A DNA stretch of 58,994 bases from a virus (IMGVR_UViG_3300033151_000226:1-58994), one strand, 5' to 3'; positions 10,727-34,384 are shown, numbered from the stretch's first letter. The notes: generated from the sequence alone by a model not told the origin. Made by a program: numbers and translations.

Positions 10727-10991
10727 GAATTGCGATCACCAAACAGTCAAGTTGTACGAGCCTGGCGTGTGGAAGTGTATGGTTTGTAGGGCGGTATTCA
10801 TCCCTGAGATCCCAGGGCGTGAACAGCTTGAGAAGCAAACAGAGATCGAGAGATCTGCCATTGAAGTGAAGTTTCGCAAGGACAACGGCCAAGATCCCGA
10901 AGGCCAGCTACCTGAATACCTGTTCTGGAAGCTGCAATGGATCGAAGCCAATGCCAAGATTGATACCGTATGCGAGTATTTAAGGAAGTAA
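10719..10991 (+). CDS. Hypothetical Zn-finger protein
   Basis: 'C.H ... WKCMVC'; GGAG RBS. Confidence 0.65.
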   Translation: MNENCDHQTVKLYEPGVWKCMVCRAVFIPEIPGREQLEKQTEIERSAIEVKFRKDNGQDPEGQLPEYLFWKLQWIEANAKIDTVCEYLRK

Positions 10992-17500: not shown

Positions 17501-20500
17501 GAGACTTTCGCCCTTTTGGTCCTCGATCAACTCAAGCTGGTTTTCAGCTACAAAGTCCTGCAACTCTTTCCGGGTAGTGGATCCTTGCTCGTCGAGCCAT
17601 TCATCCAGGCCCATCCACTCGCGTTCCTCGGCTTTGAACTTGCCACCAGTCTGTACCATTTCGCCGGTTTTCTTACTGCGCTTCAATCCCTGCTGGCCGT
17701 TGAGCCACGTTTTATACAGTTCGGCCGTGCCTTTCTTCGGCATACCCTCGGCCTGGTTGACGGTTTCCACCAGTGCGGAGAAGAATGGATCCGTACCAGC
17801 TGGCACCTTCCTATGAAACTGGGGATCCTGCTCGGTATCAGCTGCCGGGGTCTTATCACTGTCGGCACTAAGCAGATTCATTACTACTTTGTACCGGGCC
17901 CGCGCCGTTTTCAGTTCCTCGGCCTGGGCGTATGGCTTCTTAATTGCTTCACGCTTAACGGCTAACGTTTCGGTATCTTCTTTCAGACTGTGCTTGGCAT
18001 AGGGGTTTTCTTCGTCATAGGAACTTACCCGGTTCTTAATTCTGGTAAGTGCGCCTTCGCCACTGAAACTATCAATGTGGGTGTATGATTTTACGTTCTC
18101 TACCGTCTTGCCTTCGATAGACATATACATCTCTAAGTTGCCCCACATGCTATGGGCCATGGACACATCAAAGCCGCGGTAGCTGAACAGCTTAACGGGC
18201 ATTGTGCCTGGATCTCGTTTCTTGTTGGCGACGTAACCCTTAACTACACTCTCGATCGCGGTAGCGGCCTTACCAACCTTCGTATAGTTGTTTGCGCCAA
18301 CCTGGAGAGAGAATTTATCTGGTAGTGGATTGGCTTCTCTTACAGCAACAAGCCTTTTCATACGATCTACTCTTTCTTCGTATCGGCCCTGTGGCCCGCC
18401 GTCTTTCTCAAGGCGCATGATTTCTTCTTCATCGTCAAATCGGCGTCTTGTGTGTGCGGTTTCACCCAAAGAGAGTTGATTGATCTTTTGGGATAACTCT
18501 ACTTGTTCCAGCATATAAGGATTGCCGGACGCTGCCGCTTTCATTTCTGCTGCGTTGGCTGCTTCCCCGCCGATATCTTCCATTACCCGGCCTGGGTTCT
18601 CTACGTACAGCTGCATGATGTACCGGGCTTTGGTTTCCTGTACTTGCCACATGCGAGAGTCATAGGTTGATTCTGTGGCGTATCGCTTGATCTCGATCTC
18701 GAACCCGTCTGGATCCTTGGCAAAGAAACTATTGCCGCGTCGAATGATCCGGCCTTCGCGCTGAGTTATATCAGCTGGCTTCCAAGGCGCGTCCAGGTGG
18801 TGAAGTGCGACAAGCCTTTCTTGCACGTTCATACCGGCGCCCATCTTGAAGGTGGACCCAAGCAGGATTCTGATTTTCCCGCTTCTTACTTGCTCAAATA
18901 GAAGTTGCTTACGAACGTCAGTGTTGTAATCGTGAATAAACGCGATTTCATTGTCCGGTATTCCCTGGACGGCTAACTTGGCCCGCATATCGTCATAGAC
19001 GGAAAACTGGGAAGTCAGTGCCGCAACGTCGTCTGGACTGTACCTGTCGAGCTTCTTCTGTGCTGGCTTGCTTATCGTCTGGTTCGGGCTATCTGCTTTA
19101 ACCAGTAGTTCACGATACTCCCGCTGCTCTTTCTTTTGGGTTCCCTTCGGGGTTGAGAGATCAATAAACACCAACTGGGTGCCCTTATCAGCGTTCCATT
19201 TGTCGTATGTCTTTTTGATGTTGCGAACAGCAACGTTCGTTTTACTGTCTGGATTGTCCGGTAACGATGGATCAATGAGTCGCATATCCAGCGCGGCCAA
19301 CCGTGCGTGGTATGTGATCGTAAGCATGTTGTCGTCGCCCTTGCCCGGCCTGGTGGGTAGGTTCTCGGCCCGGTGGACGATCTGTGCCATAAATTCGGCT
19401 TGCTCTGCGGATCTTTCAACAATTACGTTTTCAGGTTTGCCGCCCTTGATCTTCGGTATTGGCCAACGCTTGCCCGCTTCTGCGTGGGCCTTCATCAACT
19501 GTTCGTTGGTCATTTGGTCGGCAAAGGTTCGATAGATCCCTAACAACTCTGGCAGATTCTTGAACGATCTGAATCGTTCCTTCATCTTGTAGCCTTGCGC
19601 GGTTGAGTCGAGCTCTGCTTCCGATACGATATCGGCAAACAGGGCGGCCCAACCGTCGAACATATCCATGTTCCTTTCACGTAACAGGTTCGGGGCCACA
19701 TACCTGAACATGGTGTAGAGCTCGGCCACGGTATTACTTACCGGGGTGCCAGTTAAGAACGTAACCCCGCGCTGGCTACCGTTTATTTCCCTTGTGATCT
19801 CTGTCTTGAGATACAAGTCAGAAGCCTTTTGTGAGCCCTTGGTGTCGCCCAGGCCCGCAATGCGTGTGTGTTGGGTGGTGTAAAACAGGTTCTTGAACTC
19901 ATGCGCTTCGTCAACAACCAGATCATCAACGCCCAGTTCGCGCCAATCCATGAAGTCGTCAGTCTTAATCATGGACTGGTGGGCTTCTAACTTGGCCTGT
20001 AGTGATTCCTTCTTCTTTTGAAGCTCTTTGTATGACTTGTCGGACTTACCGGCCGCCACTTCTACCGCGGCTTGGCTTATTTCGAGATCCCGGATCTGCT
20101 TCGCGGTTTGCTTGGCCTTGTCCTCTGGTGACGTGTCTATCCGGCTAAAACTCGAATGAGCAACGATTACCGCGTCCCAGTCGCCCGTCGCTATCCTGGC
20201 AAAGAACTTCCGGCGATTGTCTTTCTGGAAGTCCTGTTTAGTCGCGGCCAGTACGTTCGCGTTCGGATAAAGGAAAGCAACATCTTCGGCCCACTGGGTT
20301 ACAAGGTGGTTCGGAACAACAATCATGGGCTTATTGACCAAGCCCATGCGTTTCTTTTCCATGATCGCGGCAATCGCTAAGAAGGTTTTGCCAGCTCCGA
20401 CAACATGATCTATCAGTCCGTACCCGTCTGATATCAGTCTCCAAGCACCATTCGCTTGGTGAGGATCCAGCGTGATCGAGTTGTTCATCCCAGGGAAGGT

Positions 20501-23500
20501 TAAAAAGGATCCATCAAATTTCTTTTTAGCCTGGGTGTTGAAGTTGTCGTTGTAATGCCGTACCAGCATTGACCGGCGTTCCGGTGTTTTCCACAACCAT
20601 TCCTGGAAGTGCTCTTGCAGTTCTTTCCGCTTTGCGTTTGCTTCCTGTGTGGCCACCGCGTCAACGGACGTAGATCCGTCGTCATTCTTGAATGTGACCT
20701 TTACTTCTTTGCCCCGTATGGCGTGGTCAATAATGCGCTGCAACGATACTGCCTGTGTAGCGTATTCACGCGCTGCAGGCTTCGCTTGGGCCCATGCCTT
20801 TTGTGAACCTTCCCACCTACCCAGGGCAGGAATGTAGGCATATGACGTATTCCATCCAGTGAGATCTTTAAGATACTCGTTCATAGTGTCCGGTGGGATC
20901 CATGGCGAGTGCATATCACTACTAATCTCGATCGCCGGGATATCCGCGGGCTGTACTTCGGCCAGTGCTTTGATGTTTTCCATCATGTTCGAGTCGGTTT
21001 CTGACTCTGCGCGGGCTTCGGCCAGCTTGCGCTTGACGTTTCCTGACAGGTATTCAGATCGGATTACATACCCGTCCTTCGGATCCCGGAACAGTTCGCC
21101 GCCCTCTAACAGTTCCTCGGCTACTTCTTCTTCCGTATTGCCGGTCAATTCAGCAATGCGTTCAAGATTGGCCCGGCCAGTCTCGTTAAGTGAAATCAGA
21201 AGGCCGTCACTGGCGCTGTCGGCGTGGTTCGGTGGTGTTTGGGGTATCGCTACTGCTTTCTTGAAGATATCCGCTTTCCCGGCCTTCGACGCGGCTACCT
21301 GTTGGCCGGTGTTCTTCGCTACCGTTGCGCTAACTGGTTTTGAGTAATCAGTTTCAAGTGCCAACAACCTGGGGAAGTCTGGATCGTCACGCAAAGCCAG
21401 CTTGTTCTGTTGGTCGTGGAAATATCCATGCGCTTTCTGAAATGCGTTGTAATGCTTGTTGAGTTGGGCACGCAAGAGTTTGAGCGCGGCCGGGGGTGAG
21501 TTTGGATTGATCTCGGCTTTGAGTAGGTTGTTAAGCGAATCACGCACGCGGATCCCGCTAATCATCCGGTCCCTGGCTTTCTTGTTCCGCAGGGTTGCTG
21601 GTTCGGATCTGAATGTCGTATTCCCGTCCGGGTCAACTACGTCGGGTAAACGCTGGTACACATTGCCCTTGCTTTCAAAGTAACCATGCACCTTGGCCGT
21701 TGTATCTACTTGCAGTTCAGCGTCGGGAATGGGTTTTTCGAGTCGCTTCCTGGCCTTCGTGTCTACCTTGTAGATCCTGACTGGCAGCATTTCGACTGCA
21801 CTCTTGATCTGGTTCGGAAGGGTTCTCTTTTCGTTCGGGGCCAGTGTGGGCTCGTCCTCACGATACATGGATCCAGAACGTTGCCACGTACCGAGCATCA
21901 TTTCGGGATATCTCGCAAAATACTCGTTTGTCACGATATCTTCGCCGCCCAGGGCGTCGGGGATCTCTGCAACGTTCGTCCAGTTCAGGCTTTTACTGGG
22001 TTCACCTGGGATGCGTTTCTGCAAAAAGATGATATCCGTAACCACTTCGGTTAAGGCATTTTCCTTGAAGGCCGTGTTTGGTAGGCGGATCGCGCCCAGG
22101 AAGTCTGCTTCGCTTTCAAGGTACTTCCGGGTTTTCGCTACCTTCTTGTCCATCAGGTGACGCGAGATAACCATTGCCACCAAGCCACCAGGCCGAACCT
22201 TCTTAATGGCTTTGCCAAAGAAGTAGTTATGAATTGACCAGCCGGAGATATCACGATTGGCCATATCTGTGATCGGGTAATTGCCGAATGGCGGGTTGCC
22301 GATAACCAGATCGAAGGTGTTGTCCTGGAAGGGGATCTCTTGGAAGCCCTTTTCCGCGTGGACCGTAGCTTGTGGGTACAGCTGTTGAGCGATCCGGCCG
22401 GTGATACTGTCGAGCTCTACACCTACCAGTCGGGACTTGGCCCGCATAGTTTCAGGCAATAGGCCAAAGAAGTTACCAGTGCCTACCGCTGGCTCAAGGA
22501 TCCGGCCGCCCCGGAAGCCAAGGCGCCTTATACCCGCGTAGATCCCTTCGATAACGTCAGTGCTTGTAAAGTGAGCATTGGTTGTAGATCGGCCGGCCGC
22601 TTCCAGTTCTGATTCAGTGAGCACGGCTTCAAGCTCTGGAACTTCTGATTCCCAACCTTTTGTAATGCCCTTGCTTGGGTGCCTGAACGCTTGCGGGATC
22701 CCGCCCCAACCAACATACCGGGCAAGGGTTCTCTGTTCTTCTGGCGTGGCCATTCGTTCGGTCTGCTCAAGATCCTTGAGAAGCTCGATAGCCTTGATAT
22801 TGTCTTTGTACTTGGTTTTTGCCCCACCGGATCCGAGCTCGTCGGATGGTGTTATGACATAGTTTGACCCGGCATTGGCTCCGGTCGTTCGATCTGTACT
22901 GTCCCCAGTTCGTCCAGGTACTCGTTCGTTTCCTGCTGGAGATCCTGTAGTTCCTGCATCAACTTCTGGCCTTCCGTCAGTGGTTCCTCGTCCTCGCTCT
23001 CCGGTGGCAGTATCAGGTAGTTGTTCCGTACTTCCATCCACGCTTCTTGGTGGCTGTACCCGCCCTCCATCAGCTCGTCGATCTCCCTCGCTGTCTGGTT
23101 CGCTGCGTCCTGTAGTGCCTGTTCCAGATCCTTCGACTTCTTGAGTTCCAGGTACATCGTCGGCCGGTGCTCCTTCCAGTGCGCCCTTGCCTTCGCTACC
23201 CAACCTCTCAGCTGTCTTTTCATTTTCCGTTTCCTCTGTATTAAGTATAGCACCTAAACCCTCTTTTATGTCCCCAAACAGCTCACCTTGGTCGGTGGTG
23301 GTTGGTTGTTCGGTTTGTGCTACTGCTTCGGCTCTGGCTTCGCCGCGGCTCTGGTATTCGGCTTCTCTGTGCAACGCACGCCACGCGGCCATTACCGCAC
23401 TGTCCTCAAGGATATCGTGCCTGTCCCACATCTCCTGGACGGTGCCTTGCTTGATCGCTACTTTGAGCTCTGCAAGTGGCACGCCGATATACCCGGCATA

Positions 23501-26500
23501 TTCTTTGAGTTGCTTCGGGGTCCAGCCATGGCCGATATCGTCTGCGCCCATTTGCTCGGTATCGTCAAACTCGGCCGTGCCCATCTTTTCTTCGGTAATC
23601 CGATCGCGTATTGCCGGTACTGCTTCGCCAATGCGTTTCGAGTTGGCCCGGAGCCGGTTTGCGTCACTGGTAATGACCGGGGCTTCGTTGCCCGGCCAGT
23701 ATTCTTCGATAACCTTTTTGAGATCCAAGAGCTTCTTACGATTGGCTGCGATACCAAGCAAGTGCACGGCCTTCGGTGTTGGGCCATGCCAGTTACGAAA
23801 CAGGTTTTCGATATCTTGCGGGCTCATGGCTTCGGCTTGACTGGGGAGCCCAAGCACGTAATTACCATCACCAAACAATGCGCCCAGGTGCTTAACCGCT
23901 TCAAAGAAGCCGCCGTCACCCTTCTGGACCGGCATTATCAGATTGGTTTTCTTGGCCAGTCGCATGAGTGCGCTCATGTGTTCTTTCTGGAGCTCGATCG
24001 TGCGGGCCTGCTTGCCAACAACATCGGGAGCAACGATCCATAGTGTTTCTTTGCTGCCTGTTCCAACCGATTCTACAATAGCTTCGTACCTGGCTAATAG
24101 TTCGTCAAAGGGTAGCTCTGCCAAAGCCGTTGCAGCGTCCTTCTCGGCCTTGGTAGTGGCCTTATCGTAAGCTGCCAAGGACTGTTTGAACGCGCTGTAT
24201 GCACCGGAATCAATAAATACCGGGTGTCCATCCTTCGCCATTTCAATAACCTGGCTGGTCGCGGATCCTTGCAACTCTGGAAGTGCCACGCCTACTGCCT
24301 TGCCTGCTTTCTGGTAGCCGCTAAGATCTCCGGGCCTGCTGGCGCCGGAACGGAACGAGTACACGCCCTGGACAAACTGCGAGTCGTTGAGGATCCGTTG
24401 GGTAGTTGATACGTCCGGCTCGGCCGGGGCGGGCACCTTGAACAGATCCGCAACATCAACGACGTTGAACAGGTATAGGCTCATGCCTTCGCGCTCTGCG
24501 ATCGTTACGTTGTTTAAGCTGATACCGGCCATTGTTACCCGGTTCATGTTGTCGCCGCGGATCCGCGCTTCTTCAACGGCCGCATCAATCAACCAACGAT
24601 CGAGTTTATTGCGATCGTTCTTGGCCTTCTGGCCAACGCCAAAGCCACTATCGTTCTCGGCATTGAATAACAGGCCACGCACGTCCGGGAAGGTGAGCGT
24701 CTGCCCGCTGCGGGTTGTTACGGTGTCGGCTGTTACCTTCGGCGTGAACTCGCCTGAAACGTTGTCACCCTCGCGCATGGTGCCGGTGTAGCCTTCGACG
24801 GGTTCTACGTCCCTGGCCGTACTGTTGGCCATGAAGAACGCATACGCAAAGCCTTCCGGGGTCTGCGATCGCCGGGCCTTATCTTCTTCCACGTCACCGC
24901 GGAGTTTGTGCATTAAGGATCCGAGCGTTGCTTCGACGTTCGCGGTCGGCAATGCGGGATTGAACTCGCCCCATAACTGGGTAGTCTTGGTGTACGGGTC
25001 GCCGTAATGGTGGGGCTGGAACACCAGCAATGGTTTTGGTAGGTTCGCTTCTGTCGCTATCCGGCCAATGGGGTTCTCAAGCACGTAAAACGTGGGATCT
25101 GTGAACTCGATAATGACTTTGGTTACATCAACCAGGGTTGTGGCGTACTCAAGCGGAGTGTCGAAGTAGTCAGTAGCCCATAGGCCGTACTTCTTCTCTA
25201 CCATTGCCGAGCTCTTGAGATCGTGTTGTGTTTTCCACCACCGGGCACCGGATACCGCAAACGACGTGCAAGGGCACGCGGCCAGTATGCCTACAACCTT
25301 TTTACCAGCTTCGTGGATATCTAAAATATCCCCTGTTGGCATGAACCGGACCAGATCATCACCGTCTTTGATATCGTAACGGATCACGTCATACCCGGCG
25401 TCTACATACGGTTGACTCCATGCACCAGTGGTATCAAATAGGCTGAGTATCACTTCTCTGCTGTGATCTTCTTCCCGGCCGATCCGCTTGGCTTCACGTT
25501 TCCAGGCTTCCAGCTGTGCTGCTGCCTGCTGGCTGGTAAGTAGCTGGTCGCCAATATGTTTCTTTGCAAAGTGCTTTTCTTCGTGTGCCGGGAATATAAC
25601 GTCCTTGGTCTTGTACCCTTCTGCCTGAGTCTGAGCCAGTTCCGGCGTGATCTTCTGATCCGCACGATCCCGCAAGGTGCCGTTATACATGATCTTGACG
25701 TAAAGGTTGCCGTTTTCGTCGGTAATCTTGGCCGTACCGAGATCCCTTGAGCCCGCACCAGTCTGTTGCCGAAAATCATTCCACTTGTCAATCGCGTCCT
25801 GGACTGATTTAACTTTGAACCTGTGTGGGTTGTCGCCTTCCTTGGGGCCACCCCACTCAACAAAGAATTGCGGGCGATACGCAATCGCGCTATCCGGCGC
25901 CGTGTCGAACGATTCCAGCTGTTCCTTGATGGTTCCCGCTTCCGTTTCTGCTTCTGGTACTGGTTCTGTTGCTGGTTCCGGTTCTGCTTCTGGTTTCGGC
26001 AATACAGATTCGGCCCATTCCTCTAACCTGGAGTCGCCCCAATTCTCGGCCCGGTCGCGCCATTGAAGGTGCCCGGTTACTTCCCGGCCGTCTGCTGATC
26101 GAACTACAGTCTTGTTGGCACCACCGCGGGTATCCTTGAGCTGCATCTTGATTGCCGTACCGTTTGGTAGCTTGATAGTCCTCGTTACGTTCGATTCTTC
26201 CCACAGTGCTTCGTCGGATTGTCTCGCTTTCTTCCAACGCTTCTCGCCTTTAAGGTGGCCTTCGAGTAGTTCAACTTCCTCGAACATGCCGCCATGCTGT
26301 TCCTCGATCTTGCCGGTGAACTCTGCCAGATCTCCCTTGAAGTAGGTTTCTTCCCGCGTGGCCGCCTGCTTGAGCTCTTTCTGTTTGCCCTGGTTGAGTT
26401 TCTTACGAACCGCAAGCCAATACTCCGTCCAAGTCGGGGATCTGCCGAGATCCTTTTCAAGCCTGTTCCAAAGTTGCGTAGCCCGGCTTTCCTGCATACT

Positions 26501-29500
26501 GGTGAAGTTGGCCGTACTGATCGACGCCATTTTCTTTGGAATAGCCCGGTCCATGGCTCCCGCTTCTTCTTTACTCCAAGCCTTTAAGAAACTATCCGGG
26601 ATCGGTGAGTCGTTCGGTTGCCCAAGGAACTCGGCCATAGACGATCGGTACTCGCTTGTTATGCCGTCCTCTTTTGGTGGGGCCGGTGGCATTTTCGCGC
26701 CTTCAAACAGATTGAAGTCGAAATTGCCAAACGGTTTGCTTTGGTTGCCATTTTCTAACCACTCTTTCAGGGCGGGTAGCGTGGTCATTGTGTGACCGGC
26801 GTATACCTGGGTGTCCTCAAAGCCTTCGCTGTAGTTGCGGAAGTAGGTTTCTTTTTCTTTGAATTGCTCGGCACCAATAATTATCTTGTGCTCGTCAAAC
26901 CTGCCAGTCTCGATATCTCGCTGGTCAACGATTGCAACACGCGGCCTGTCACTTGCCGCTTCCGGGCCCAGGAACACATCTACATGATCGCCGTCGTTGC
27001 CTTCGGTGCGTTTGATGTATCCGTAGTGGTCGACCATCGTTACTTGCCAGTCTTTGCCCTCGCGAGTGCTGCCGGACGGGTTCTCGATAGTGATATCAAA
27101 ACCGTGAAGGTTTACGTGGCCCTTCTTATAATTTCCTGCGTCCTTCTGGCCTTCGGTGGGTTCGGGTAGGTCATTGGTAGGCGACGTTGCCGCTTCGTGG
27201 GCCGCTTCGTTTAGATTTTCTTCGCCGTCACCAATTACGGGCGGGGATTTCTCCCCGCCTTCATTGACGAGATCTACTTCGGCTTGTTGCTGATCCCGTG
27301 TACGTGGTTGCTCCCTTCCTTCGCGCACTTGCCGCCGCTGTTCTTGCCCTGGTTCGCGTCCTGGACCCGGTGGTCGTTGTTCACCTTCCGGGATGGGGTC
27401 TTGCCGCCCTTCCTCTTGATCGGGTAGCCCGCTGTATTGTTGTCCATCATCTGTATCCTCTTGTGTTGCCACATCTTCAAGGGTTGTAGCGGAGCCCTGT
27501 TCTGTTGCCGGATCCCCGGTAAGATTTACCGTCTTACCTTCTTCGAGATCTTGGCCTTGTTTCTCTCTGGCACGCTGTTCAATAACGCGCCGCGCTTCTT
27601 TCGCAAGCTCCTCATGCGGGGAACGTTTCAGTTGTTCGAGTACGTGATCCGGGGCGATATCCATGGTATCGAGCAATTCATCATGGAGCCACTTGCGGGC
27701 ATTGACGCCGCGCTCTTTCAGGATATCCCAGGCTACTTGCCGGGCATTGTCGGATCTGGTTGGATCTGCCCACTCGTCGATAAGCTGCCGATCTTCCTGC
27801 TTCTCCAGGGAAGGCCGGATCTTCTTCATTCGTTTAGCGTCTGTCTCGCCGGTTATGCCACTTTCATTCGGTGAGAAGTTCTTAACATCACGATCGCGGA
27901 ACGTGTCTGCGATCATACCTGGCACTGACGCCGGGCCACCCATCATCATACCAACGCCAAAGGCCCAACCGATCCGGCCAAAGCCTTCACCAAACGTGGG
28001 GGCGTTCATTGTTTCGTCAATGTCGCCGCCAATGTGGGCCAGTTCTGTAACGGCTTCTGAACCACCTTCGGCCAAGGTGTTGATACCCAGTCCCTTCAAT
28101 CCCTTGATACCAATGGCCGCACGCTGGAACACGCCAAAGATGCGCTCTGGCACCACTTCGGCCAATGTCCTGAATACCATTTCTCTGGTTGCTTGTACGG
28201 GATCCTTACCGTCGTCGATCCGGGCCTTTACGTACTCGCCTGGTGCAACCATGGCGGCCATAACTGCTTCACCGGCCCATGGCAGCTTCGATACCGCACT
28301 GGCAAACATACCACTGGCCAGATATGGCAGGGAGTCCATTGCATCGGATCCCATTCGTAGAATGATATTCTCAGGACGTGAGAATCCCGCATGACGCATG
28401 TTGGTTGTTGCGGCTTCGTACAGATCCTTTGCAACCTGTTCGAGTGCCGGGTTCATGTTGTCCGGGTGATCGGCCGCCATTTGTGTGACGCCAGCTGCCC
28501 ACTCTTTGCCCATACCGGCATACTGCTGTACCCGGCCAAAGATCCAGTCCTTACCGTTTTTGAAGTCGGCCAATACTTCTTTTTGGAAGGCTTCTTCGTT
28601 CTCAACGCCGCGCTTACGCATTTCGAGCTTGCCCAGGTAGTCGGCCCACTGTTCATCTGAGAACATTGCCAGCATAGGATTACCGGCCATTTGCGGGGTT
28701 ATGTACTTGGTGAGATCGTTGAGCTGCGTTACGCGGGTTGCATACCGGGTAAATTCTTCGTCAGAGATCCGGCCAAGGTCCGGGTGTGAATAAATGGTAT
28801 CAGGGGCGAGTCCACGATCGACAAGAGCTTTCAATCCCTTGTGTCGCTTCTCCATGAGAGCGAAGGTTTCTGGTGTTTGTGTGACAGTGCCCTGGAACGG
28901 ACGGTCTACGCTGTAATCGTTCGGGCCGTCCAGTGCCGGGTTATCAGCACCATGGCGACGGGCGAAACGACTACGCGCCTGCGTGTCTGGTGTTGATGGG
29001 TTGATGGTAGTTTCTTGGCTGGCCGGCCACTTGATGCGATCGCCGTTATCGTCGAACTGTTCAATGCTTCCGGGCTCGTTGTCACCTTCCAGGAAGGCGT
29101 CGATTGCGGCTTCCTCGTTGTCGTATCCTGCGGTATTGACCATGTAACGCTGGCCATTATGGTCAAACGGGATGGTATCGCGCATTTCCACCCCTCGCGG
29201 GGCTGCGGTTGGCTGTTCTCGTTGGGCCGGTGCCTGCGGTGTGTTCAGATCGTAACTGTTGGCAATACCGGCGATATCCGGTTGTTCTAACTCTACGTGT
29301 TCTTCTTCTGCGGCCCTTACTGCTTCATCGGCCGTTGAATACGGATTTACCTTGCCAGCTTGTATATCAGATAGCGCGGCTTCAATCGCTTCATCGTCTG
29401 ATCCATAATCAATGCCGGTGTCTCTATCGAACCCAGGAACGTTGTACCACTTCCCATCTGGCCCTTGGGCCGTTTTGCTGAGTACCGTCGTGGTGGATCC

Positions 29501-29878
29501 ATCCTCGTTGGTTCGCTGCTTACCCTGCCTTACGGTTTCATCGTTATATTGCTGAGTGTAGCTCCGGTCCGGCTTCGGCTCCGCTGGCGTTACCTGGGAT
29601 CCAACATAGTCGGCAAAGCGTTCGCGGGAGTCTGTTGGGGGCTTGAACTCAAACCCTTGGCCTTCTGGTACCGTGCTCGGATCGTGCACAGGAATACCCG
29701 AATCCAAGATGTTGGTACGCTCATTGAACATATTGCGAAGCTCGGTTTCCCTTTCAGGTGTACCGGCCTTCGGTTTTAACTCCCGGTCATAGAAGCGATC
29801 CCGGACCGCTATTTTCTGATCGTAAGTTAAACCTTCCCAACGTTCGTCCTCTTGGATCTCCCGCCACGTACTCGCCAT
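11576..29878 (-). CDS. Giant (6100 aa) polyvalent DarB-like internal virion protein
   Basis: InPase-like 'NYKKGH...YGY......DGDHVDVF'; C5-MTase 'LSLFD..G/PCT.F..SG/ENP'; TGT-like 'IDSGAYS/APDVVG/PVQ/HLLG'; N6-MTase 'LEPAVGTG/GNPPF'; SNF2 'HVVGAGKT/VDEAH/QREGRIIR'; HELAH peptidase; LPD38-like 'RIPKPFE.G'. Confidence 0.93.
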   Translation of the reverse strand: MASTWREIQEDERWEGLTYDQKIAVRDRFYDRELKPKAGTPERETELRNMFNERTNILDSGIPVHDPSTVPEGQGFEFKPPTDSRERFADYVGSQVTPAEPKPDRSYTQQYNDETVRQGKQRTNEDGSTTTVLSKTAQGPDGKWYNVPGFDRDTGIDYGSDDEAIEAALSDIQAGKVNPYSTADEAVRAAEEEHVELEQPDIAGIANSYDLNTPQAPAQREQPTAAPRGVEMRDTIPFDHNGQRYMVNTAGYDNEEAAIDAFLEGDNEPGSIEQFDDNGDRIKWPASQETTINPSTPDTQARSRFARRHGADNPALDGPNDYSVDRPFQGTVTQTPETFALMEKRHKGLKALVDRGLAPDTIYSHPDLGRISDEEFTRYATRVTQLNDLTKYITPQMAGNPMLAMFSDEQWADYLGKLEMRKRGVENEEAFQKEVLADFKNGKDWIFGRVQQYAGMGKEWAAGVTQMAADHPDNMNPALEQVAKDLYEAATTNMRHAGFSRPENIILRMGSDAMDSLPYLASGMFASAVSKLPWAGEAVMAAMVAPGEYVKARIDDGKDPVQATREMVFRTLAEVVPERIFGVFQRAAIGIKGLKGLGINTLAEGGSEAVTELAHIGGDIDETMNAPTFGEGFGRIGWAFGVGMMMGGPASVPGMIADTFRDRDVKNFSPNESGITGETDAKRMKKIRPSLEKQEDRQLIDEWADPTRSDNARQVAWDILKERGVNARKWLHDELLDTMDIAPDHVLEQLKRSPHEELAKEARRVIEQRAREKQGQDLEEGKTVNLTGDPATEQGSATTLEDVATQEDTDDGQQYSGLPDQEEGRQDPIPEGEQRPPGPGREPGQEQRRQVREGREQPRTRDQQQAEVDLVNEGGEKSPPVIGDGEENLNEAAHEAATSPTNDLPEPTEGQKDAGNYKKGHVNLHGFDITIENPSGSTREGKDWQVTMVDHYGYIKRTEGNDGDHVDVFLGPEAASDRPRVAIVDQRDIETGRFDEHKIIIGAEQFKEKETYFRNYSEGFEDTQVYAGHTMTTLPALKEWLENGNQSKPFGNFDFNLFEGAKMPPAPPKEDGITSEYRSSMAEFLGQPNDSPIPDSFLKAWSKEEAGAMDRAIPKKMASISTANFTSMQESRATQLWNRLEKDLGRSPTWTEYWLAVRKKLNQGKQKELKQAATREETYFKGDLAEFTGKIEEQHGGMFEEVELLEGHLKGEKRWKKARQSDEALWEESNVTRTIKLPNGTAIKMQLKDTRGGANKTVVRSADGREVTGHLQWRDRAENWGDSRLEEWAESVLPKPEAEPEPATEPVPEAETEAGTIKEQLESFDTAPDSAIAYRPQFFVEWGGPKEGDNPHRFKVKSVQDAIDKWNDFRQQTGAGSRDLGTAKITDENGNLYVKIMYNGTLRDRADQKITPELAQTQAEGYKTKDVIFPAHEEKHFAKKHIGDQLLTSQQAAAQLEAWKREAKRIGREEDHSREVILSLFDTTGAWSQPYVDAGYDVIRYDIKDGDDLVRFMPTGDILDIHEAGKKVVGILAACPCTSFAVSGARWWKTQHDLKSSAMVEKKYGLWATDYFDTPLEYATTLVDVTKVIIEFTDPTFYVLENPIGRIATEANLPKPLLVFQPHHYGDPYTKTTQLWGEFNPALPTANVEATLGSLMHKLRGDVEEDKARRSQTPEGFAYAFFMANSTARDVEPVEGYTGTMREGDNVSGEFTPKVTADTVTTRSGQTLTFPDVRGLLFNAENDSGFGVGQKAKNDRNKLDRWLIDAAVEEARIRGDNMNRVTMAGISLNNVTIAEREGMSLYLFNVVDVADLFKVPAPAEPDVSTTQRILNDSQFVQGVYSFRSGASRPGDLSGYQKAGKAVGVALPELQGSATSQVIEMAKDGHPVFIDSGAYSAFKQSLAAYDKATTKAEKDAATALAELPFDELLARYEAIVESVGTGSKETLWIVAPDVVGKQARTIELQKEHMSALMRLAKKTNLIMPVQKGDGGFFEAVKHLGALFGDGNYVLGLPSQAEAMSPQDIENLFRNWHGPTPKAVHLLGIAANRKKLLDLKKVIEEYWPGNEAPVITSDANRLRANSKRIGEAVPAIRDRITEEKMGTAEFDDTEQMGADDIGHGWTPKQLKEYAGYIGVPLAELKVAIKQGTVQEMWDRHDILEDSAVMAAWRALHREAEYQSRGEARAEAVAQTEQPTTTDQGELFGDIKEGLGAILNTEETENEKTAERLGSEGKGALEGAPADDVPGTQEVEGSGTGTTGRSEPDSEGDRRADGGRVQPPRSVDGSTEQLPDTATGERGRGTTDGRPEVDAGTTGSPAGNERVPGRTGDSTDRTTGANAGSNYVITPSDELGSGGAKTKYKDNIKAIELLKDLEQTERMATPEEQRTLARYVGWGGIPQAFRHPSKGITKGWESEVPELEAVLTESELEAAGRSTTNAHFTSTDVIEGIYAGIRRLGFRGGRILEPAVGTGNFFGLLPETMRAKSRLVGVELDSITGRIAQQLYPQATVHAEKGFQEIPFQDNTFDLVIGNPPFGNYPITDMANRDISGWSIHNYFFGKAIKKVRPGGLVAMVISRHLMDKKVAKTRKYLESEADFLGAIRLPNTAFKENALTEVVTDIIFLQKRIPGEPSKSLNWTNVAEIPDALGGEDIVTNEYFARYPEMMLGTWQRSGSMYREDEPTLAPNEKRTLPNQIKSAVEMLPVRIYKVDTKARKRLEKPIPDAELQVDTTAKVHGYFESKGNVYQRLPDVVDPDGNTTFRSEPATLRNKKARDRMISGIRVRDSLNNLLKAEINPNSPPAALKLLRAQLNKHYNAFQKAHGYFHDQQNKLALRDDPDFPRLLALETDYSKPVSATVAKNTGQQVAASKAGKADIFKKAVAIPQTPPNHADSASDGLLISLNETGRANLERIAELTGNTEEEVAEELLEGGELFRDPKDGYVIRSEYLSGNVKRKLAEARAESETDSNMMENIKALAEVQPADIPAIEISSDMHSPWIPPDTMNEYLKDLTGWNTSYAYIPALGRWEGSQKAWAQAKPAAREYATQAVSLQRIIDHAIRGKEVKVTFKNDDGSTSVDAVATQEANAKRKELQEHFQEWLWKTPERRSMLVRHYNDNFNTQAKKKFDGSFLTFPGMNNSITLDPHQANGAWRLISDGYGLIDHVVGAGKTFLAIAAIMEKKRMGLVNKPMIVVPNHLVTQWAEDVAFLYPNANVLAATKQDFQKDNRRKFFARIATGDWDAVIVAHSSFSRIDTSPEDKAKQTAKQIRDLEISQAAVEVAAGKSDKSYKELQKKKESLQAKLEAHQSMIKTDDFMDWRELGVDDLVVDEAHEFKNLFYTTQHTRIAGLGDTKGSQKASDLYLKTEITREINGSQRGVTFLTGTPVSNTVAELYTMFRYVAPNLLRERNMDMFDGWAALFADIVSEAELDSTAQGYKMKERFRSFKNLPELLGIYRTFADQMTNEQLMKAHAEAGKRWPIPKIKGGKPENVIVERSAEQAEFMAQIVHRAENLPTRPGKGDDNMLTITYHARLAALDMRLIDPSLPDNPDSKTNVAVRNIKKTYDKWNADKGTQLVFIDLSTPKGTQKKEQREYRELLVKADSPNQTISKPAQKKLDRYSPDDVAALTSQFSVYDDMRAKLAVQGIPDNEIAFIHDYNTDVRKQLLFEQVRSGKIRILLGSTFKMGAGMNVQERLVALHHLDAPWKPADITQREGRIIRRGNSFFAKDPDGFEIEIKRYATESTYDSRMWQVQETKARYIMQLYVENPGRVMEDIGGEAANAAEMKAAASGNPYMLEQVELSQKINQLSLGETAHTRRRFDDEEEIMRLEKDGGPQGRYEERVDRMKRLVAVREANPLPDKFSLQVGANNYTKVGKAATAIESVVKGYVANKKRDPGTMPVKLFSYRGFDVSMAHSMWGNLEMYMSIEGKTVENVKSYTHIDSFSGEGALTRIKNRVSSYDEENPYAKHSLKEDTETLAVKREAIKKPYAQAEELKTARARYKVVMNLLSADSDKTPAADTEQDPQFHRKVPAGTDPFFSALVETVNQAEGMPKKGTAELYKTWLNGQQGLKRSKKTGEMVQTGGKFKAEEREWMGLDEWLDEQGSTTRKELQDFVAENQLELIEDQKGESLLTVSGEANFKHSPHGPDAAENYLTDLGAEGYEDYNYRHEGDKVIFKNLPHHVYREFAKLAYKNAGAVSYTIDTVSIDMLPTGAGVVEGPDGFYVQDEEMDIVTDSYSTEEEAITQVLNDENILNTGFPTKYANWQLPGGDKYKELILRIPVQKETVTRTTQKGFVEVREHKIRDFDPVRGGYETGEVDYFLITAHGEWSEQGYPTREEAEKHLTKPEATTVDVEKDAYKGQHFDERNIIVHIRFNTRTGPNGETILFIEEIQSDWHQAGRKKGYKSQEIPDGMVYEANGKWRLRAVHDPSVAFSTRELANTYYRSINKRSGVPDAPFKKGWNMLAMKRMIRYAAENGYDTIAWTTGQQQAERYDLSKHVKWITAKPKYKPGSGPGRVQSNLPEGSALRLDKHREWELEIGLMKGGIENIYPTDETLEDHVGKELAEKILEAEAARRAKKKELSSKLTDMEQAGASFTRVNKVTDELAEQIDLGTNGHMFSGLDLKVGGEGMKGFYDNILVKETNKFVKKWGGRVGEIEIPKQPGRSERGDLETRFENWMDENQMLDHQGDHFSHPDDILTNESISITPAQEGFLRDMSTDMIELDERMEDEGVALDPHQVTVQLMGMNNWAVTDGEGYTYEGGFNTKDEAEAAMDKMLHGGTSKQHALTITEDMYDAAMASFPMFAKNGLDLGFGAKVKRLVVGLGRITPATKQLEQAMARFLGVKVKTGTYRQVAAPTEVSGAVKAVQRVYGKKVVFFKATGDEHLNYPFNGVALPSDPKTIYVNIDNQNPFLGVTGHELAHTLEQTHPELWDQIVNVAMRHVQLGGLKKFSDKMREDTEDTARQEADDETQMFREMVANVVGDAFMDPVFIRELAKKDRNLFQRILDAIIDILKSFQKKVKARGMGSGKYFTDLGTMISDVQEILGQYEESQAETPPAGQDPMFQSEFTKRRSGDLEKQMLDANYDLKVAGDKVAQIGERLRFAKMFMAAPKKEQISMNLKLRRRVKELEADWENGTTVEPLRQVKLMQEIIKDPAVDRLEAEMESARAVSEKARERLHRQIALRNKLASQEPAFNRKYTEEQKEFMKKAGMKVQRRSLIDTFRGYMDIQWRESKRNLSDAIQHGLFDKFYGIKRAYRDYLDETETPAMDGYIAARLSTGSASVMRGILLHGAPEWRGGVISKVPGSRGLLDVFEPVKQELDDFLGWMIARRAERLMEEEKERNFDDTDIAAGLELANGTLERNGVTVQRKDLYEKVAEDFAEFKGRILDLAERAGLIDEETRPVWDKADWIPFYRVDNARQRGGIKFGKGMGLSHQTSGIRRLVGGESALSDPLGNIVMNFNHLIEASMKNLAVLETVDALDGTGALDKEGIKFNPKLIPRGGIKKMMLQDGIPEEILDMMGQLGVFDGIAKLWAMAEPAGKEVVKVMRDGKPEYYRVNDPMLLKSLTNVNIESLRGLFLPMRAAKTLLTTMITSEPGFMARNFTRDTLHAWVINEDHFIPIVDSVHGLYKSAKEEGGMLDMMFAGGSFQGGYINGTDPDASRKSIRVALRLKGYDNEYIQEHLDTVIDLTAGVWDRWRRVGDAVENANREAVYEAATKNGKERRQAIFEAKDLMDFSMHGSWAWIQMFNDMLPFFNARLQGLYKLGRSGAVPVPGLIAKEIAMRGMWIALASTALAALNSGDEDYEALEEWDKDAYWHLMPGTKFHTRIPKPFEVGVLYGTIPERMYRAAIGKDTPEKLFERMGHALMDTMAANPIPQIMRPAMEVFANESMFTGRPIEGMADRNKMKRSRYNASTSETMVAMGPFLELMGLSPKQGEFLVRGYMGTLGSYSLMAADVITREIMGRAPVPAMTARQLPVLGGFYRGSGPAWNTRYGTEMYEIHREVTELYGTVKAYEKQGDRESIEGLMDEDNRKQLKARKRIGKWARDRSKMRKAIDRIYRDPKMDPKAKREKINKIIERRNAQDAKAYKYFSPMFGRK
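22852..23223 (-). CDS. Overprinted TnpV-like protein (123 aa) inside the giant gene
   Basis: AGAGGA-N8-ATG; 'AHWKEHRPTMY.EL...K.L...L' and 'EA...V....LILPPE'; the giant frame is disordered here. Confidence 0.75.
   Translation of the reverse strand: MKRQLRGWVAKARAHWKEHRPTMYLELKKSKDLEQALQDAANQTAREIDELMEGGYSHQEAWMEVRNNYLILPPESEDEEPLTEGQKLMQELQDLQQETNEYLDELGTVQIERPEPMPGQTMS
23232..23252 (-). promoter_or_regulatory. Internal extended -10 promoter plus RBS
   Basis: TGcTATACT (23252-23244) then AGAGGA (23237-23232). Confidence 0.55.
27274..27450 (-). CDS. Overprinted 58-aa K/G/N-rich basic peptide inside the giant gene
   Basis: GAGGA-N5-ATGATG; 51 of 56 non-Met codons end in G/C by hand count. 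Confidence 0.55.
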   Translation of the reverse strand: MMDNNTAGYPIKRKGGKTPSRKVNNDHRVQDANQGKNSGGKCAKEGSNHVHGISNKPK

Positions 29879-29884
29879 TACCGC

Positions 29885-31051
29885 TTACCCCTCACCCATT
29901 GCAGCATCAAGTATCGCACCTATATCGTCGTTGTTTCCACCACCGCGCATTAACTCGCGTGCGTCGTCTTTGGCCCGCTGCATAGAGGAGTCTCTATCCT
30001 CGTCGTCGTATGAGTTTTCTGCATAGATCTTATACAGCTCCGCGGCAACCTTTCTCTCTGCTACAACCGGGTCAATGGCTCCGCGCTGTACCGCTATCTG
30101 ATAGGCTTCGAGTCGAACTTCGGCCGGGTTACGGCCTTCGTTCTCTGGCATTTGCAACAAGAGCTGGTTGATATCATCTACCGTGCGTTCTTTCTCGGTT
30201 GAAGGCGCTGGACCACCACGATAACCACTGCTGCGGCTTCCACGGACCCCGCCATAGCCACCACGGTTCTGGCCAATGTTGCCGTAACCGCTTAACCGAT
30301 TCACGATCTCTGGATTGGTAAAGGTTTGCATGAAGCCCTGGCGTAGCTGCTCCATGCTCTCAGCCTTGTGCACCTGCCCATCATCCATGGTAATGATGTA
30401 CCCGCCCGGTACGTCTGGATCCTCAGTCGTTGTGGTTCCAGGTGTGTTCGGGAAAAACTCGTCGTAGAAATCATCAAAGGCTTGCGGGCTGCCTGATATC
30501 TCTACCAGCTGATCTGCGTCTTGTGCACCACGAATCTTCTGTTGATCGTCGTACTGCTGTTCCTGCTGATTGGCAACCATACCGCCGATCTTGTCTCTGC
30601 GTTCGGCTGCCCGGTCGTTGTAGTCAACCGCTTTCATGCGCCCAGGGTGTTCCCTGTTGGCTATTTCTTCGTCACGACGGATCCCGGATATCCTGCCCGG
30701 CTGTGAAACTATGTCGGCTTGTTCGTCACGAGCGGCCCCGGATTCCTGTCTATCAATAACGTTCCGGTCGTTTTTCTTTGCATACTCGGAGCTCTCATCG
30801 TTACGGATCCCGCGCCTTGCCTTTTGCTCCCGCGCCCGCTGGTCGAAGTCCACGTTAGCTTGATCGTTCGGCCGTTCCATTTCTGACTGTTCATCCCGGC
30901 GTTCGGCTGAACGGATCTCGATCGGATCCAAGATCTCGTCAAGCATCTTGTCTCGATCAAAGGTGTAATCAGTCTGCCTGCTTTGATCGCGCATCTGTTT
31001 ACCGTTGTAGTAACCCCTGATTCCCAGTCCTGCGCCTGTTCCTGCACCCAT
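29885..31051 (-). CDS. Putative internal virion / DNA ejection protein
   Basis: Gly-rich N-terminus, Q/R/D-rich helices, directly upstream of the giant gene. Confidence 0.7.
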   Translation of the reverse strand: MGAGTGAGLGIRGYYNGKQMRDQSRQTDYTFDRDKMLDEILDPIEIRSAERRDEQSEMERPNDQANVDFDQRAREQKARRGIRNDESSEYAKKNDRNVIDRQESGAARDEQADIVSQPGRISGIRRDEEIANREHPGRMKAVDYNDRAAERRDKIGGMVANQQEQQYDDQQKIRGAQDADQLVEISGSPQAFDDFYDEFFPNTPGTTTTEDPDVPGGYIITMDDGQVHKAESMEQLRQGFMQTFTNPEIVNRLSGYGNIGQNRGGYGGVRGSRSSGYRGGPAPSTEKERTVDDINQLLLQMPENEGRNPAEVRLEAYQIAVQRGAIDPVVAERKVAAELYKIYAENSYDDEDRDSSMQRAKDDARELMRGGGNNDDIGAILDAAMGEG

Positions 31052-31938
31052 TACGCTACCCTCCGTGACGATCCAAACAGGCCGTCATAATCTACATACA
31101 AGAACCCGTTTTCAGCTTCGTGGACGAATCCTGAATCAAGGTGTTCTTGGGCAATAACGCCAGTGGTTAAGCCCTTAATTCCGTGCTTCCTGGCCAGATC
31201 GTTCCAATCCCATGAATAAAGGTTGATACCGTTCCAGCTGCCAGTTTTAACAATGTTGTCTTTAAGGCGCCTGTCACTAAAAAAGCCAGCCGCCTTGCCC
31301 CAGGCACCTGCCCAGTCAATACCGCCAATAGTTTCACCCCAACCAGCTGCGTCTGAGGATCCGGTACCCCGCGTTCCAGCTGATTGCTTGAAGCGTGAAC
31401 CGGCCATATCTTGCATTGAGTTGCCAACTTGCCCGTATGAAGCCCTAACCCCCTGGCCGAGTGATGATTGAACACCCAACAATGAGTTATGAACACCAGA
31501 AAGCCGAGAGTATTTAAGCCCGGCCGAGTCTTGCCGGGCCTTGTTGCGGATCCCGGAATGTGCAGCTGATCGTTTGATAGCGTAGTCGCGTTCACTGTGG
31601 CCATAGGCACCATCGGTAGGTTTAATGCCATATCGCTTCATTTCGCGGCGCTCCATCCCTTGAGCTGAATCAAACGACGTGTTTATGTCCCCGGCGATCG
31701 CGTTGTAGTCCGGGGTAATGCCGTCGTCGATGTGACTCATCATATCGTCGTACACCGGATCGTAGCGCCCTTGCCAGTCGGCATACTGCTCTTTCGAGAA
31801 GTCCAGTCCCTCGCGTTGCAGGGCCAGTTCATCCTCCTGGATCCCGTAACCTTTCTTCCACTGCTTGTCGGCCCGCTTATCGGACTTGTGTTTCATTATG
31901 CCGCCGACTACGGCCGCGCCAATTGCTATCCATGGCAT
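31051..31938 (-). CDS. Putative ejection (pilot) protein with C-terminal peptidase S74 chaperone domain
   Basis: 'MPWIAIGAAVVGG' start; 'SDRRLKDNI ... LYSWDW ... GVIAQE ... G..YVDY'. Confidence 0.8.
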   Translation of the reverse strand: MPWIAIGAAVVGGIMKHKSDKRADKQWKKGYGIQEDELALQREGLDFSKEQYADWQGRYDPVYDDMMSHIDDGITPDYNAIAGDINTSFDSAQGMERREMKRYGIKPTDGAYGHSERDYAIKRSAAHSGIRNKARQDSAGLKYSRLSGVHNSLLGVQSSLGQGVRASYGQVGNSMQDMAGSRFKQSAGTRGTGSSDAAGWGETIGGIDWAGAWGKAAGFFSDRRLKDNIVKTGSWNGINLYSWDWNDLARKHGIKGLTTGVIAQEHLDSGFVHEAENGFLYVDYDGLFGSSRRVA

Positions 31939-33758: not shown

Positions 33759-34384
33759 TACATGACTGCCTTCGGTTCGTATGCTGGCCGCAAGTGTGGC
33801 GGCATGTAGGCTTCTGTTACCAGCTGGCCAAACATTTCCTTCGCTTCTTCGCAACCTTCGTCAGTTGCGAACCGGCCAAAGCCCTTTATCCGGCCGTCCT
33901 CTACCAAGATCTCGCGCAACATTTCAAGACGCTGGACCGGGAAAGGCGCCGGGATCTCCAAGTATTGCCACAAGGCCCGCAACGTATCGTGCTGGAATAG
34001 ATGTTTGTATTGGATCACCGGGACGTTTGGTACGTTCTTTACCAACCAGTGCAGGCCCGCCCACACAGCTGGCATTGATTCGTCACTACAGGATATGGTT
34101 TTAAGCGATTTGCGTACATCGTCTGCCGGTCGCAGTACCACAAAAAACCTATATCCAAGCGGCCGGAGTTGTGCCGCCAGTGTTGGCGCTATCACTCCTG
34201 CGGCTGTATCAATGCTGCCCTTAACCGGCGTATCCAGACTGTCTATTGAACTGATAAACCCATTGATACTGTCACAACCATACAGGGCTTCATGCCTGCA
34301 AAATGACGATTCCCCATGACAAAGGAAGTTTGATAACCAAGCAGTTCCGCTACGTGGAGTCGCAAAACCGAGAAACTTCATCAC
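33758..34384 (-). CDS. Sulfotransferase-fold P-loop protein
   Basis: 'PRSGTAWLSNFL', 'C.HE', 'VVLR...DV..SL', 'IQY..L'. Confidence 0.7.
   Translation of the reverse strand: MMKFLGFATPRSGTAWLSNFLCHGESSFCRHEALYGCDSINGFISSIDSLDTPVKGSIDTAAGVIAPTLAAQLRPLGYRFFVVLRPADDVRKSLKTISCSDESMPAVWAGLHWLVKNVPNVPVIQYKHLFQHDTLRALWQYLEIPAPFPVQRLEMLREILVEDGRIKGFGRFATDEGCEEAKEMFGQLVTEAYMPPHLRPAYEPKAVM

Follow-up and report, generated by a model that had tools for sequence, protein, structure and literature searches.

Why should a phage carry a domain resembling the base-exchanging transglycosylases of the TGT/DpdA type inside a giant protein, when its genome seems to lack the genes that make the base to be inserted? 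The question is raised by the viral record IMGVR_UViG_3300033151_000226 (positions 1-58994), a phage genome of 58,994 bp that ends in direct repeats and is rated 100% complete; the whole of it was analysed and is referred to as the window. An earlier note on this DNA had placed a TGT/DpdA-like domain at 23640-24365. We find that the domain is housed in a single open reading frame (ORF) of 6100 amino acids (aa) at 11576..29878 on the minus strand, and that it is apparently an intact base-exchange domain of the TGT superfamily, predicted to be catalytically competent. We rate the family to which it belongs as one more subfamily of DpdA-like proteins, deployed in a new manner and probably with a familiar chemistry. 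All coordinates given below for this ORF and its neighbouring genes refer to the minus strand.

A conserved domain outside the named families

The six TGT-type motifs that had been pointed out were all located, in the order then given, within the 6100-aa ORF: VFIDSGAYSAF at 24188-24220 (aa 1887-1897), IVAPDVVG at 24014-24037, IMPVQKG at 23918-23938, LGLPS at 23840-23854, VHLLG at 23753-23767 and ITSDA at 23660-23674. The span first proposed takes in strands b1 to b8 of the predicted barrel, with b1 running from V1839 (24362-24364), and the final barrel helix continues past it to about 23576. The (beta/alpha)8 barrel as delimited by the AlphaFold2 model, the fold searches and hhalign thus covers ORF aa 1839-2101 (23576..24364). 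The family alignment adds a conserved C-terminal extension at aa ~2102-2182 (23333..23575), running from a DxTE motif to a near-invariant Arg, which 72 of 151 relatives reach in the alignment to the family profile.

A phmmer search with a 321-aa query (P0001, ORF aa 1800-2120) against 1.84 billion cluster representatives returned 710 proteins at E<=1e-3, 295 of them at E<=1e-10. The family hence amounts to 710 clusters at 50% identity, in which the domain occurs solo or within the polyvalent giants of phages and plasmids. Conservation was counted in an alignment of the query and its 150 best relatives (n=151). The Asp of DSGA (D1890) is kept in 150 of the 151 and is followed four residues later by an aromatic residue (F/Y) in 148, this being Phe in most relatives, while the Asp of APD (D1952) is kept in all 151. 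The Gln of PxQxG (Q1985) is found in 143, with His in 5 of the others, and the His (H2039) and Gly of HLLG are found in 150 each. The last Asp (D2072) is present in 148, the remaining three being gaps, and the b6 position holds Pro-Ser, with the Pro in 150. Such near-invariance of the motif residues across 151 sequences points to an enzyme family under strong selection and not to a chance set of motifs.

Curated resources do not see this family. P0001 matched no Pfam family at E<=10 and no NCBIfam family, and both phmmer and the family profile gave only chance matches among PDB sequences (fatty-acid-binding proteins, E ~0.5). The source annotation is equally blind to it, as the relatives are named 'hypothetical protein' or not at all and none has a precomputed Pfam domain.

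Predicted fold

Structure prediction bears out the TGT-like TIM barrel that the motifs had suggested: AlphaFold2, run on a 58-sequence alignment, gave an eight-stranded barrel, and TGT-superfamily chains came top in the fold searches. The model has a mean pLDDT of 85.8, a pTM of 0.82 and eight strand-helix units, with the strands (P0001 numbering) at b1 40-44, b2 63-66, b3 88-91, b4 147-150, b5 180-184, b6 209-213, b7 238-242 and b8 269-274. The conserved residues are placed at or just past the C-terminal ends of b3, b4, b5, b6, b7 and b8, where the active sites of TIM barrels lie.

Searching 48,161 PDB representatives with VIA-align ranked arcTGT 1iq8_A first (Z 14.4, root-mean-square deviation (rmsd) 4.4, 219 aligned), followed by DpdA 7ui4_A (Z 13.8), bacterial TGT 3unt_A (13.4), Cap10 9ntn_B (12.1) and QTRT2 6fv5_A (11.9), all five being members of the TGT superfamily. 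Foldseek against the PDB returned 106 matches at E<=0.001, the best at E 2.7e-05, and the 50 best were all Z. mobilis TGT entries. When the 999 best Foldseek chains were re-aligned, the best 50 were all of the TGT family, and DpdA superposed with an rmsd of 3.2 over 197 residues. Among the viral predicted structures in BFVD the best match was a member of the same family, an 877-aa 'ART-PolyVal-like domain-containing protein' (E 1.4e-14, TMq 0.64); phage 'queuine tRNA-ribosyltransferases' were found at ranks 4, 13, 14, 19, 20 and 29, and a megavirus UV-endonuclease fragment at rank 17. The generic TIM-barrel enzymes PdxJ, OMP decarboxylase, DERA and the class II aldolases (Z 11-11.8) were considered as counterparts and rejected; they rank under all five TGT-superfamily chains and leave the conserved motifs unexplained.

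Sequence relation to DpdA and TGT

In sequence the family is linked to the DpdA of phages. Alignment of the family profile by hhalign to the DpdA sequence of phage 9g gave a probability of 87.5% (E 3.6e-06, 88 columns), and alignment to a 12-sequence DpdA1 profile a probability of 91.5% (E 8.5e-07, 89 columns); the 89-column stretch takes in DSGAF, D-x-x-G-D and the Gln/His position. The phage family phrog_887, annotated as 'queuine tRNA-ribosyltransferase', was matched by 18 of 58 relatives at E<=0.01, with a best value of 2.3e-08, and phrog_15826, of function unknown, by 27 of the 58. The same profile aligned to the single E. coli TGT over only 24 columns around DSGGF, with a probability of 1.6%, and the family hidden Markov model, in a local comparison with per-sequence E-values, gave DpdA1 proteins scores of up to 20.5 bits, as against 0.5 bits for E. 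coli TGT. With the E. coli TGT alignment this weak, it is structure that ties the family to TGT proper, and in sequence the tie is to phage DpdA.

None of the 58 relatives matched PF01702 (TGT) at E<=0.1. For PF20314 (DUF6610), which has been equated with DpdA4, there was no match for the query and one for the 58 relatives, at E 0.028. The label TGT/DpdA-like of the earlier note can accordingly be retained for a barrel of the TGT/DpdA superfamily, and not for a member of PF01702 or of bacterial DpdA proper, as the zinc site is absent and no curated model was matched. Judged from these comparisons, the domain is nearer to phage DpdA than to the tRNA enzymes, yet belongs to a separate, unnamed family.

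With phage DpdA1 (9g; phrog_887) it shares a small zinc-less TGT-fold barrel, 9g DpdA also being without CxCxxC, and a like order of DSGAF, D-x-x-G-D, H-x-x-G and a late Asp predicted to be catalytic. It differs by having Gln for His after b5 and Pro-Ser for Gly-Gly at b6, by often being embedded in giant polyvalent proteins, and by standing away from preQ0/G+ genes in 46 of 46 loci, whereas the DpdA of a viral contig used as control (L023, see below) stands in a QueE-QueC-QueD-FolE-DpdA operon.

Active site

In bacterial DpdA (bDpdA), Asp95 serves as general acid/base and Asp256 as nucleophile, Asp130 and His181 recognise the base's Watson-Crick edge, and Phe99 stacks on the base; alanine in place of either catalytic Asp abolishes guanine exchange. 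For Cap10, D73, S74, D122 and K154 are given as readers and D248/H226 as catalytic pair. The predicted counterparts of these residues in the ORF are D1890-S1891, Y1894, D1952, Q1985, H2039 and D2072.

Asp1890 of DSGAY, at the end of b3 (24209..24211), is the predicted general acid/base, equivalent to bDpdA Asp95, and was aligned by hhalign with the D of DSGGF in E. coli TGT and with D72 of 9g DpdA. Asp1952 of APD, after b4 (24023..24025), is the predicted base-binding Asp, equivalent to bDpdA Asp130; it is aligned with D114 of 9g DpdA, and Gln1985 of PVQKG, after b5 (23924..23926), with H141, both in the significant hhalign stretch. His2039 of VHLLG, in b7 (23762..23764), is the predicted hydrogen-bond partner of the nucleophile, as in the D248/H226 pair of Cap10, and Asp2072 of ITSDAN, in b8 (23663..23665), is the predicted covalent nucleophile, equivalent to bDpdA Asp256. 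A greedy hhalign run, of low confidence, placed H2039-x-x-G on H196-x-x-G and D2072 on D215 of 9g DpdA. The two catalytic Asp residues that were expected to align thus do so to different degrees, D1890 inside the significant DpdA1 stretch and D2072 in the low-confidence extension only.

The likeness to bDpdA (S. Montevideo, 7UI4; Dpd restriction-modification) comprises the TIM barrel (Z 13.8) and predicted counterparts of Asp95, Asp130, His181, Asp256 and Phe99. On the other hand bDpdA has four insertions, a CXCX2CX22H zinc site and a requirement for the ATPase DpdB, whereas this domain has no such insertions and no Cys, and is encoded by invading elements and not by a host defence island. A CxCxxC...H zinc site is described as conserved in TGTs and in the bDpdA family; it is absent here, as there is no Cys in ORF aa 1836-2185. 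The TGTs (bacterial TGT, arcTGT, QTRT1; PF01702) are the best structural matches (Z 13.4-14.8) and agree in the aligned DSG[GA][FY] and in catalytic logic, and they differ in that the domain has no PF01702 match. Cap10 of type IV CBASS (9NTN; Z 12.1) likewise has the TGT fold, the Asp/His pair and Asp-Ser/Asp readers of 7-deazaguanine. It is a host defence protein which binds a deazaguanylated CD-NTase and works with the QueC-like Cap9, whereas the phage genome has neither Cap9 nor QueC.

Family distribution and fusion partners

Among the 150 best relatives 70 are shorter than 500 aa, 41 have 500-2000 aa and 39 have 2000-7235 aa, and short contigs may have left some of the short ones as fragments. 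There are complete solo genes, for instance an annotated coding sequence of 265 aa on a Pseudomonas plasmid, and the domains of solo and fused proteins are intermixed by nearest neighbour. In 21 viral contigs found by a sub-alignment search the domain lies in ORFs of at least 3223 aa in 13 and of 278-593 aa in 8; three pairs of these viral loci look near-duplicate. A tblastn search with the query detected 48 plasmid records, with genera including Pseudomonas (31), Shewanella (5) and Cupriavidus (4), and predicted mobility was conjugative for 17, mobilizable for 4 and non-mobilizable for 27. A further 23 family loci were found in bacterial genomes and metagenome-assembled genomes.

Where the domain is fused, Pfam finds InPase (polyvalent-protein inorganic pyrophosphatase) with it in 5 and DUF6884 in 2 of 25 mid-size relatives; among 12 giant relatives the partner is InPase in 2, LPD1 in 5 and LPD38 in 4. 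Other partners are ART-PolyVal, SLT, ResIII, Mom, DNA_methylase, methyltransferases, RadC and GGDEF. On one plasmid a 2174-aa LPD1 protein with the domain adjoins traW.

Some single loci may be mentioned. The giant relative P0012 (3541 aa) carries a GGDEF diguanylate-cyclase domain at residues 1060-1204 (E 2.1e-15) together with TGT-like, InPase, LPD5, LPD1 and RadC domains. In Cupriavidus basilensis plasmid pRK1-3 (L047:5851-7599, +) a 582-aa protein joins the TGT-like domain to DUF6884 (PF21818, E 2.3e-13); its gene stands 3.5 kb from a TraI relaxase gene and adjoins SprT-like and thermonuclease genes. DUF6884 is described as a DNA-binding, base-flipping fold and a distant kin of YaaA/DUF328 (PF03883), the Pfam family of DpdC. 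In Pseudomonas aeruginosa plasmid pPALA50 (L048:6001-7688, +) the solo 265-aa member is followed directly by a 266-aa phosphoribosyltransferase-like gene, whose PF00156 match (E 2.7e-4) is under the Pfam cut-off. A general linkage of the family to either the phosphoribosyltransferase-like gene or DUF6884 was rejected, since phmmer in 47 loci found each only where it had first been seen, and both are thus anecdotes.

Base-synthesis genes

A six-frame search of the genome gave no match to PF01702 TGT, PF06508 QueC, PF01242 PTPS/QueD, PF01227 GTP cyclohydrolase I or PF04055 radical SAM, with models that matched in 10-14 of 14 control genomes. As the record is rated 100% complete, this agrees with the earlier statement that the genome holds no preQ0 pathway, no TGT, QueC, QueD, FolE or radical-SAM match being present in it. 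The pattern extends to the relatives: QueC/QueD were found in none of 20 other viral family records, including none of the 8 that are at least 90% complete, and FolE/QueD/QueC/QueE of the 9g type (phmmer with the four 9g proteins) in none of 46 loci. Among 47 loci they appeared only in viral contig L023, where a canonical QueE-QueC-QueD-FolE-DpdA operon (6922-10750, +) encodes a DpdA matching that of 9g at E 4e-94. L023 was caught by the same G[GS]x[VIL]F[VIL]DSGA pattern and served as a positive control; it is not among the 20 viral records and 46 loci counted here.

It should be noted that DpdA without neighbouring synthesis genes has a precedent. Hutinet et al. 2019 describe phages that have dpdA only, whose hosts are mostly queuosine makers, and show that dPreQ0 from the host enters plasmid DNA in E. 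coli when 9g dpdA acts alone. That DpdA usually stands beside preQ0 genes, as had been remarked for this locus, hence remains good as the usual rule and not as one without exception, and since dpdA-only phages are known the absence of synthesis genes does not exclude DpdA membership. The unusual point is that linkage to synthesis genes is lacking across the whole family.

Proposed function and alternatives

We consider it quite possible, if short of probable, that the family is a new DpdA-like subfamily which exchanges guanine in the DNA of the element for a host-made 7-deazaguanine. The subfamily would be a previously unnamed, zinc-less one, closest to phage DpdA1. We favour DNA as substrate because the family is more closely akin to DpdA1, because its fusion partners are directed at DNA and because DUF6884 is among them, and the base must in that case be supplied by the host because the phage encodes no synthesis genes. 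In the mechanism we propose, a guanine nucleotide of the element's own double-stranded DNA would be flipped into the barrel, where its Watson-Crick edge would be recognised by Asp1952 and Gln1985, with the DSGA[FY] aromatic residue stacking on the base. Asp2072, oriented by His2039, would then attack C1' to give an intermediate in which enzyme and DNA are covalently joined, as Asp1890 donates a proton to the departing guanine, and preQ0 or preQ1 from the host queuosine pathway would resolve the intermediate in a double displacement. The resulting marks of dPreQ0/dPreQ1 type might blunt restriction of progeny DNA, of incoming DNA or of both; the domain would work on progeny DNA ahead of packaging, on the genome once ejected, or at both stages. 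The N6-methyltransferase and SNF2 modules of the same polypeptide may work alongside the TGT-like domain, and we speculate that the SNF2 ATPase could take the part of DpdB.

Several observations weigh against this proposal. As to the fold, the Z margin over generic TIM barrels is small (11.9-14.4 vs 11.8 for PdxJ), and the TM scores of the Foldseek PDB matches are low, at 0.34-0.43. At the sequence level no Pfam, NCBIfam or PDB sequence search matches the query, its own match to phrog_887 reaches just E 0.086 over 26 residues, and the significant hhalign stretch is of 89 columns only, with the His and the nucleophile Asp outside it in the low-confidence extension. Position b6 has Pro-Ser, in contrast to the Gly-Gly of E. 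coli TGT and 9g DpdA, and the pocket around the 7-substituent may therefore differ. No DpdB was seen in the phage genome, in which no search was aimed at DpdB. That no preQ0 gene stands near the family loci fits a host-supplied base and equally a different substrate. Many members reside on conjugative plasmids, whose DNA enters the cell single-stranded. Finally, tblastn with three family members against 50,697 records of cultured phages gave no match.

Alternatively, the same covalent chemistry might serve an eraser or glycosylase that removes a base from DNA without installing a 7-deazaguanine, whether by restoring guanine in place of a modified purine, by taking off the dPreQ0/dADG self-marks of a host Dpd system, or by plain excision. 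TGT exchange with free guanine is known, and the bDpdA assay itself measures guanine exchange. The lack of base-synthesis linkage in 46 loci speaks for such an enzyme, arrival together with the invading DNA would fit an effector directed against defence, DUF6884 with its YaaA/DpdC-related base-flipping fold is joined to the domain in one relative, and solo relatives lie near the relaxase and SprT-like genes of the Cupriavidus plasmid. We nevertheless find it doubtful, since the guanine-type readers and the full set of acid/base and nucleophile are those of inserting enzymes and no member of the TGT superfamily is known to be a pure glycosylase. A similarly doubtful proposition is that TGT-fold enzymes make up a class of effectors, so far overlooked, which are delivered in polyvalent proteins or encoded early on conjugative plasmids, have no genes for base synthesis beside them and act before the invader expresses its genes. 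In its boldest form they would not write marks but erase or hijack host 7-deazaguanine immunity, be it by removing the Dpd dPreQ0/dADG self-marks or by capturing type IV CBASS and Qat deazaguanine conjugates.

The inserted base could also be another host purine or deazapurine, for example CDG or ADG, which would make it a DNA modification so far undescribed. DpdA subfamilies vary in substrate, with DpdA3 proposed to insert CDG, DG or ADG, b6 has Pro-Ser in place of Gly-Gly and the family is distinct from all curated models. We regard this as unlikely, as the conserved Asp and Gln that would read the 2-amino-6-oxo edge limit the choice to guanine-like bases, and no host-independent supply of an unusual base is encoded.

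A target in host tRNA seems rather unlikely. The domain would here exchange G34 or Q34, or the base at some other position, and so reprogram or cripple translation early in infection. The similarity in sequence is to DpdA1 (up to 20.5 bits) and not to E. coli TGT (0.5 bits; 24 columns, 1.6%), the zinc subdomain is absent, and the fusion partners, among them N6-methyltransferase/SNF2, Mom, DNA_methylase and DUF6884, are directed at DNA. This has to be set against tRNA being the ancestral substrate of the superfamily, the place of arcTGT and bacterial TGT among the best structural matches, and the phage encoding no tRNA, as no tRNA genes were found in its genome.

In the structural search Cap10, a TGT-fold enzyme that accommodates the deazaguanylated N-terminus of a protein, came fourth (Z 12.1); it has the same Asp/His catalytic pair, and Iyer et al. 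2017 proposed polyvalent proteins as carriers of early anti-defence activities. The domain might then counter host defence by binding or processing 7-deazaguanine-protein conjugates (type IV CBASS Cap9/Cap10, QatABCD), or by soaking up the precursor. We hold this to be quite improbable, given that the His/Asp pair is also present in the DNA-modifying 9g DpdA, that no sequence-level link to Cap10 was found and that the fusion partners point to DNA. It is hardly credible that the domain has no more than the common fold in common with TGT, be it as a TIM barrel of generic or inactive kind, as a structural spacer or as an unrelated enzyme, for although many unrelated TIM barrels reach Z 10-11.8 and no curated family model matches, the five top representatives are all of the TGT superfamily, the profile similarity to DpdA1 is significant and the TGT-type catalytic residues are invariant in 148-151 of the 151 relatives.

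Relation to earlier descriptions

The presence of DpdA is taken to signal 7-deazaguanine DNA modification, and this family would add another subfamily to the five named so far (bDpdA and DpdA1-4); the name 'DpdA5' did not occur in the main texts of the literature searched. Deployment as a giant virion-type polyvalent module, or on plasmids including conjugative ones, without a base pathway was not described in that literature. The terms 'tgt', 'queuine' and 'deazaguanine' are absent from the main text of Iyer et al. 2017. In the available parts of two further sources, a jumbo-phage survey mentions deazaguanine systems only as separate genes and 'deazaguanine' does not occur in a leading-region paper. 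'Polyvalent proteins' and 'DpdA' were found together only in a paper on BREX-related host systems, which cites the polyvalent-protein work for GNATs.

If host-made deazaguanines are indeed written into DNA, as we favour, dpdA surveys keyed to queC/queD/queE would underestimate such modification, and the host queuosine pathway would be a resource that invaders exploit on entry. Should the function be another one, it would be a new activity for a well-studied fold. Specialists would be surprised by how large the family is, by its escape from annotation, by the context of its delivery and by its lack of ties to base-synthesis genes. In either case direct biochemistry is feasible given the small size of the domain, or of a solo homologue of 250-400 aa.

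The giant ORF and its neighbourhood

Pfam was run over nine overlapping pieces of the 6100-aa ORF, and the piece carrying the TGT-like domain matched no family. The other pieces revealed the InPase domain at 26756..27151 (PF18823, E 3.9e-40), an N6-adenine DNA methyltransferase-like domain at 22013..22570 (PF07669, Eco57I, E 1.9e-08; PF02384, E 1.7e-05) with its NPPFGN motif at 22280-22297, the N- and C-lobes of an SNF2-type helicase/ATPase at 18734..20419 (PF00176, E 3.6e-11; PF04851, E 1.3e-06; PF00271, Helicase_C, E 3.7e-05), and the C-terminal polyvalent-protein domain LPD38 at 11939..12475 (PF18857, E 6.3e-45). Modules of this polyvalent type, methyltransferase and helicase, are exemplified by DarB of P1. 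An HExxH motif, the mark of zincins, was located as HELAHT at 15119..15136 (ORF aa 4915-4920), a region in which the family searches matched nothing. HELAHT may belong to a self-processing metallopeptidase, such as Iyer et al. 2017 proposed for polyvalent proteins.

Because InPase, N6-methylase, SNF2/Helicase_C and LPD38 are united in one polypeptide, we count the ORF among the large polyvalent proteins of Iyer et al. 2017. With the proteins described there it agrees in being giant and multi-domain, in its InPase, LPD38, N6-methyltransferase, SNF2 and HExxH components and in its place beside ejection-protein genes, and the idea that activities modifying the DNA come in along with it is common to both. 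The ORF is the terminal gene of a minus-strand late operon that holds tail fibres, terminase, portal, major head protein, structural proteins, internal virion protein, DNA ejection protein and then the ORF, a position from which the giant protein would be made late. Its upstream neighbours are homologues of an internal virion protein (34381..36435; phrog_511, E 2.3e-104) and of a DNA ejection protein (31051..31938; phrog_4287, E 1e-16; phrog_21132, E 3.3e-13). As the ORF directly follows these genes and carries InPase and LPD38 (Iyer et al. 2017), gene order and domain content suggest that its product probably travels inside the capsid and leaves it along with the genome on ejection.

Two further stretches of the ORF flank the TGT-like module. 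Between it and the N6-methyltransferase, at aa ~2185-2330 (22900-23330), there is a long acidic Gly/Thr/Arg-rich stretch of low complexity, which looks like a disordered linker such as would join modules that act independently. Some 300 aa upstream of the domain, at aa 1536-1605 (25064-25273), PCTSFAVSG and LENPIG resemble motifs IV and VI of C5-cytosine DNA methyltransferases; aa 1400-1800 gave no match in Pfam, PDB sequences or NCBIfam, and one giant relative has a weak PF00145 match (E 5.4e-4).

The portal protein of the phage (49407-51440) has at most 29.6% identity to that of any cultured phage, the closest matches being Rhizobium phages RHph_TM3_14A and TM27A/B, followed by the Roseobacter CRP and Puniceispirillum HMO-2011 podophages. 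The phage is a distant, uncultured relative.

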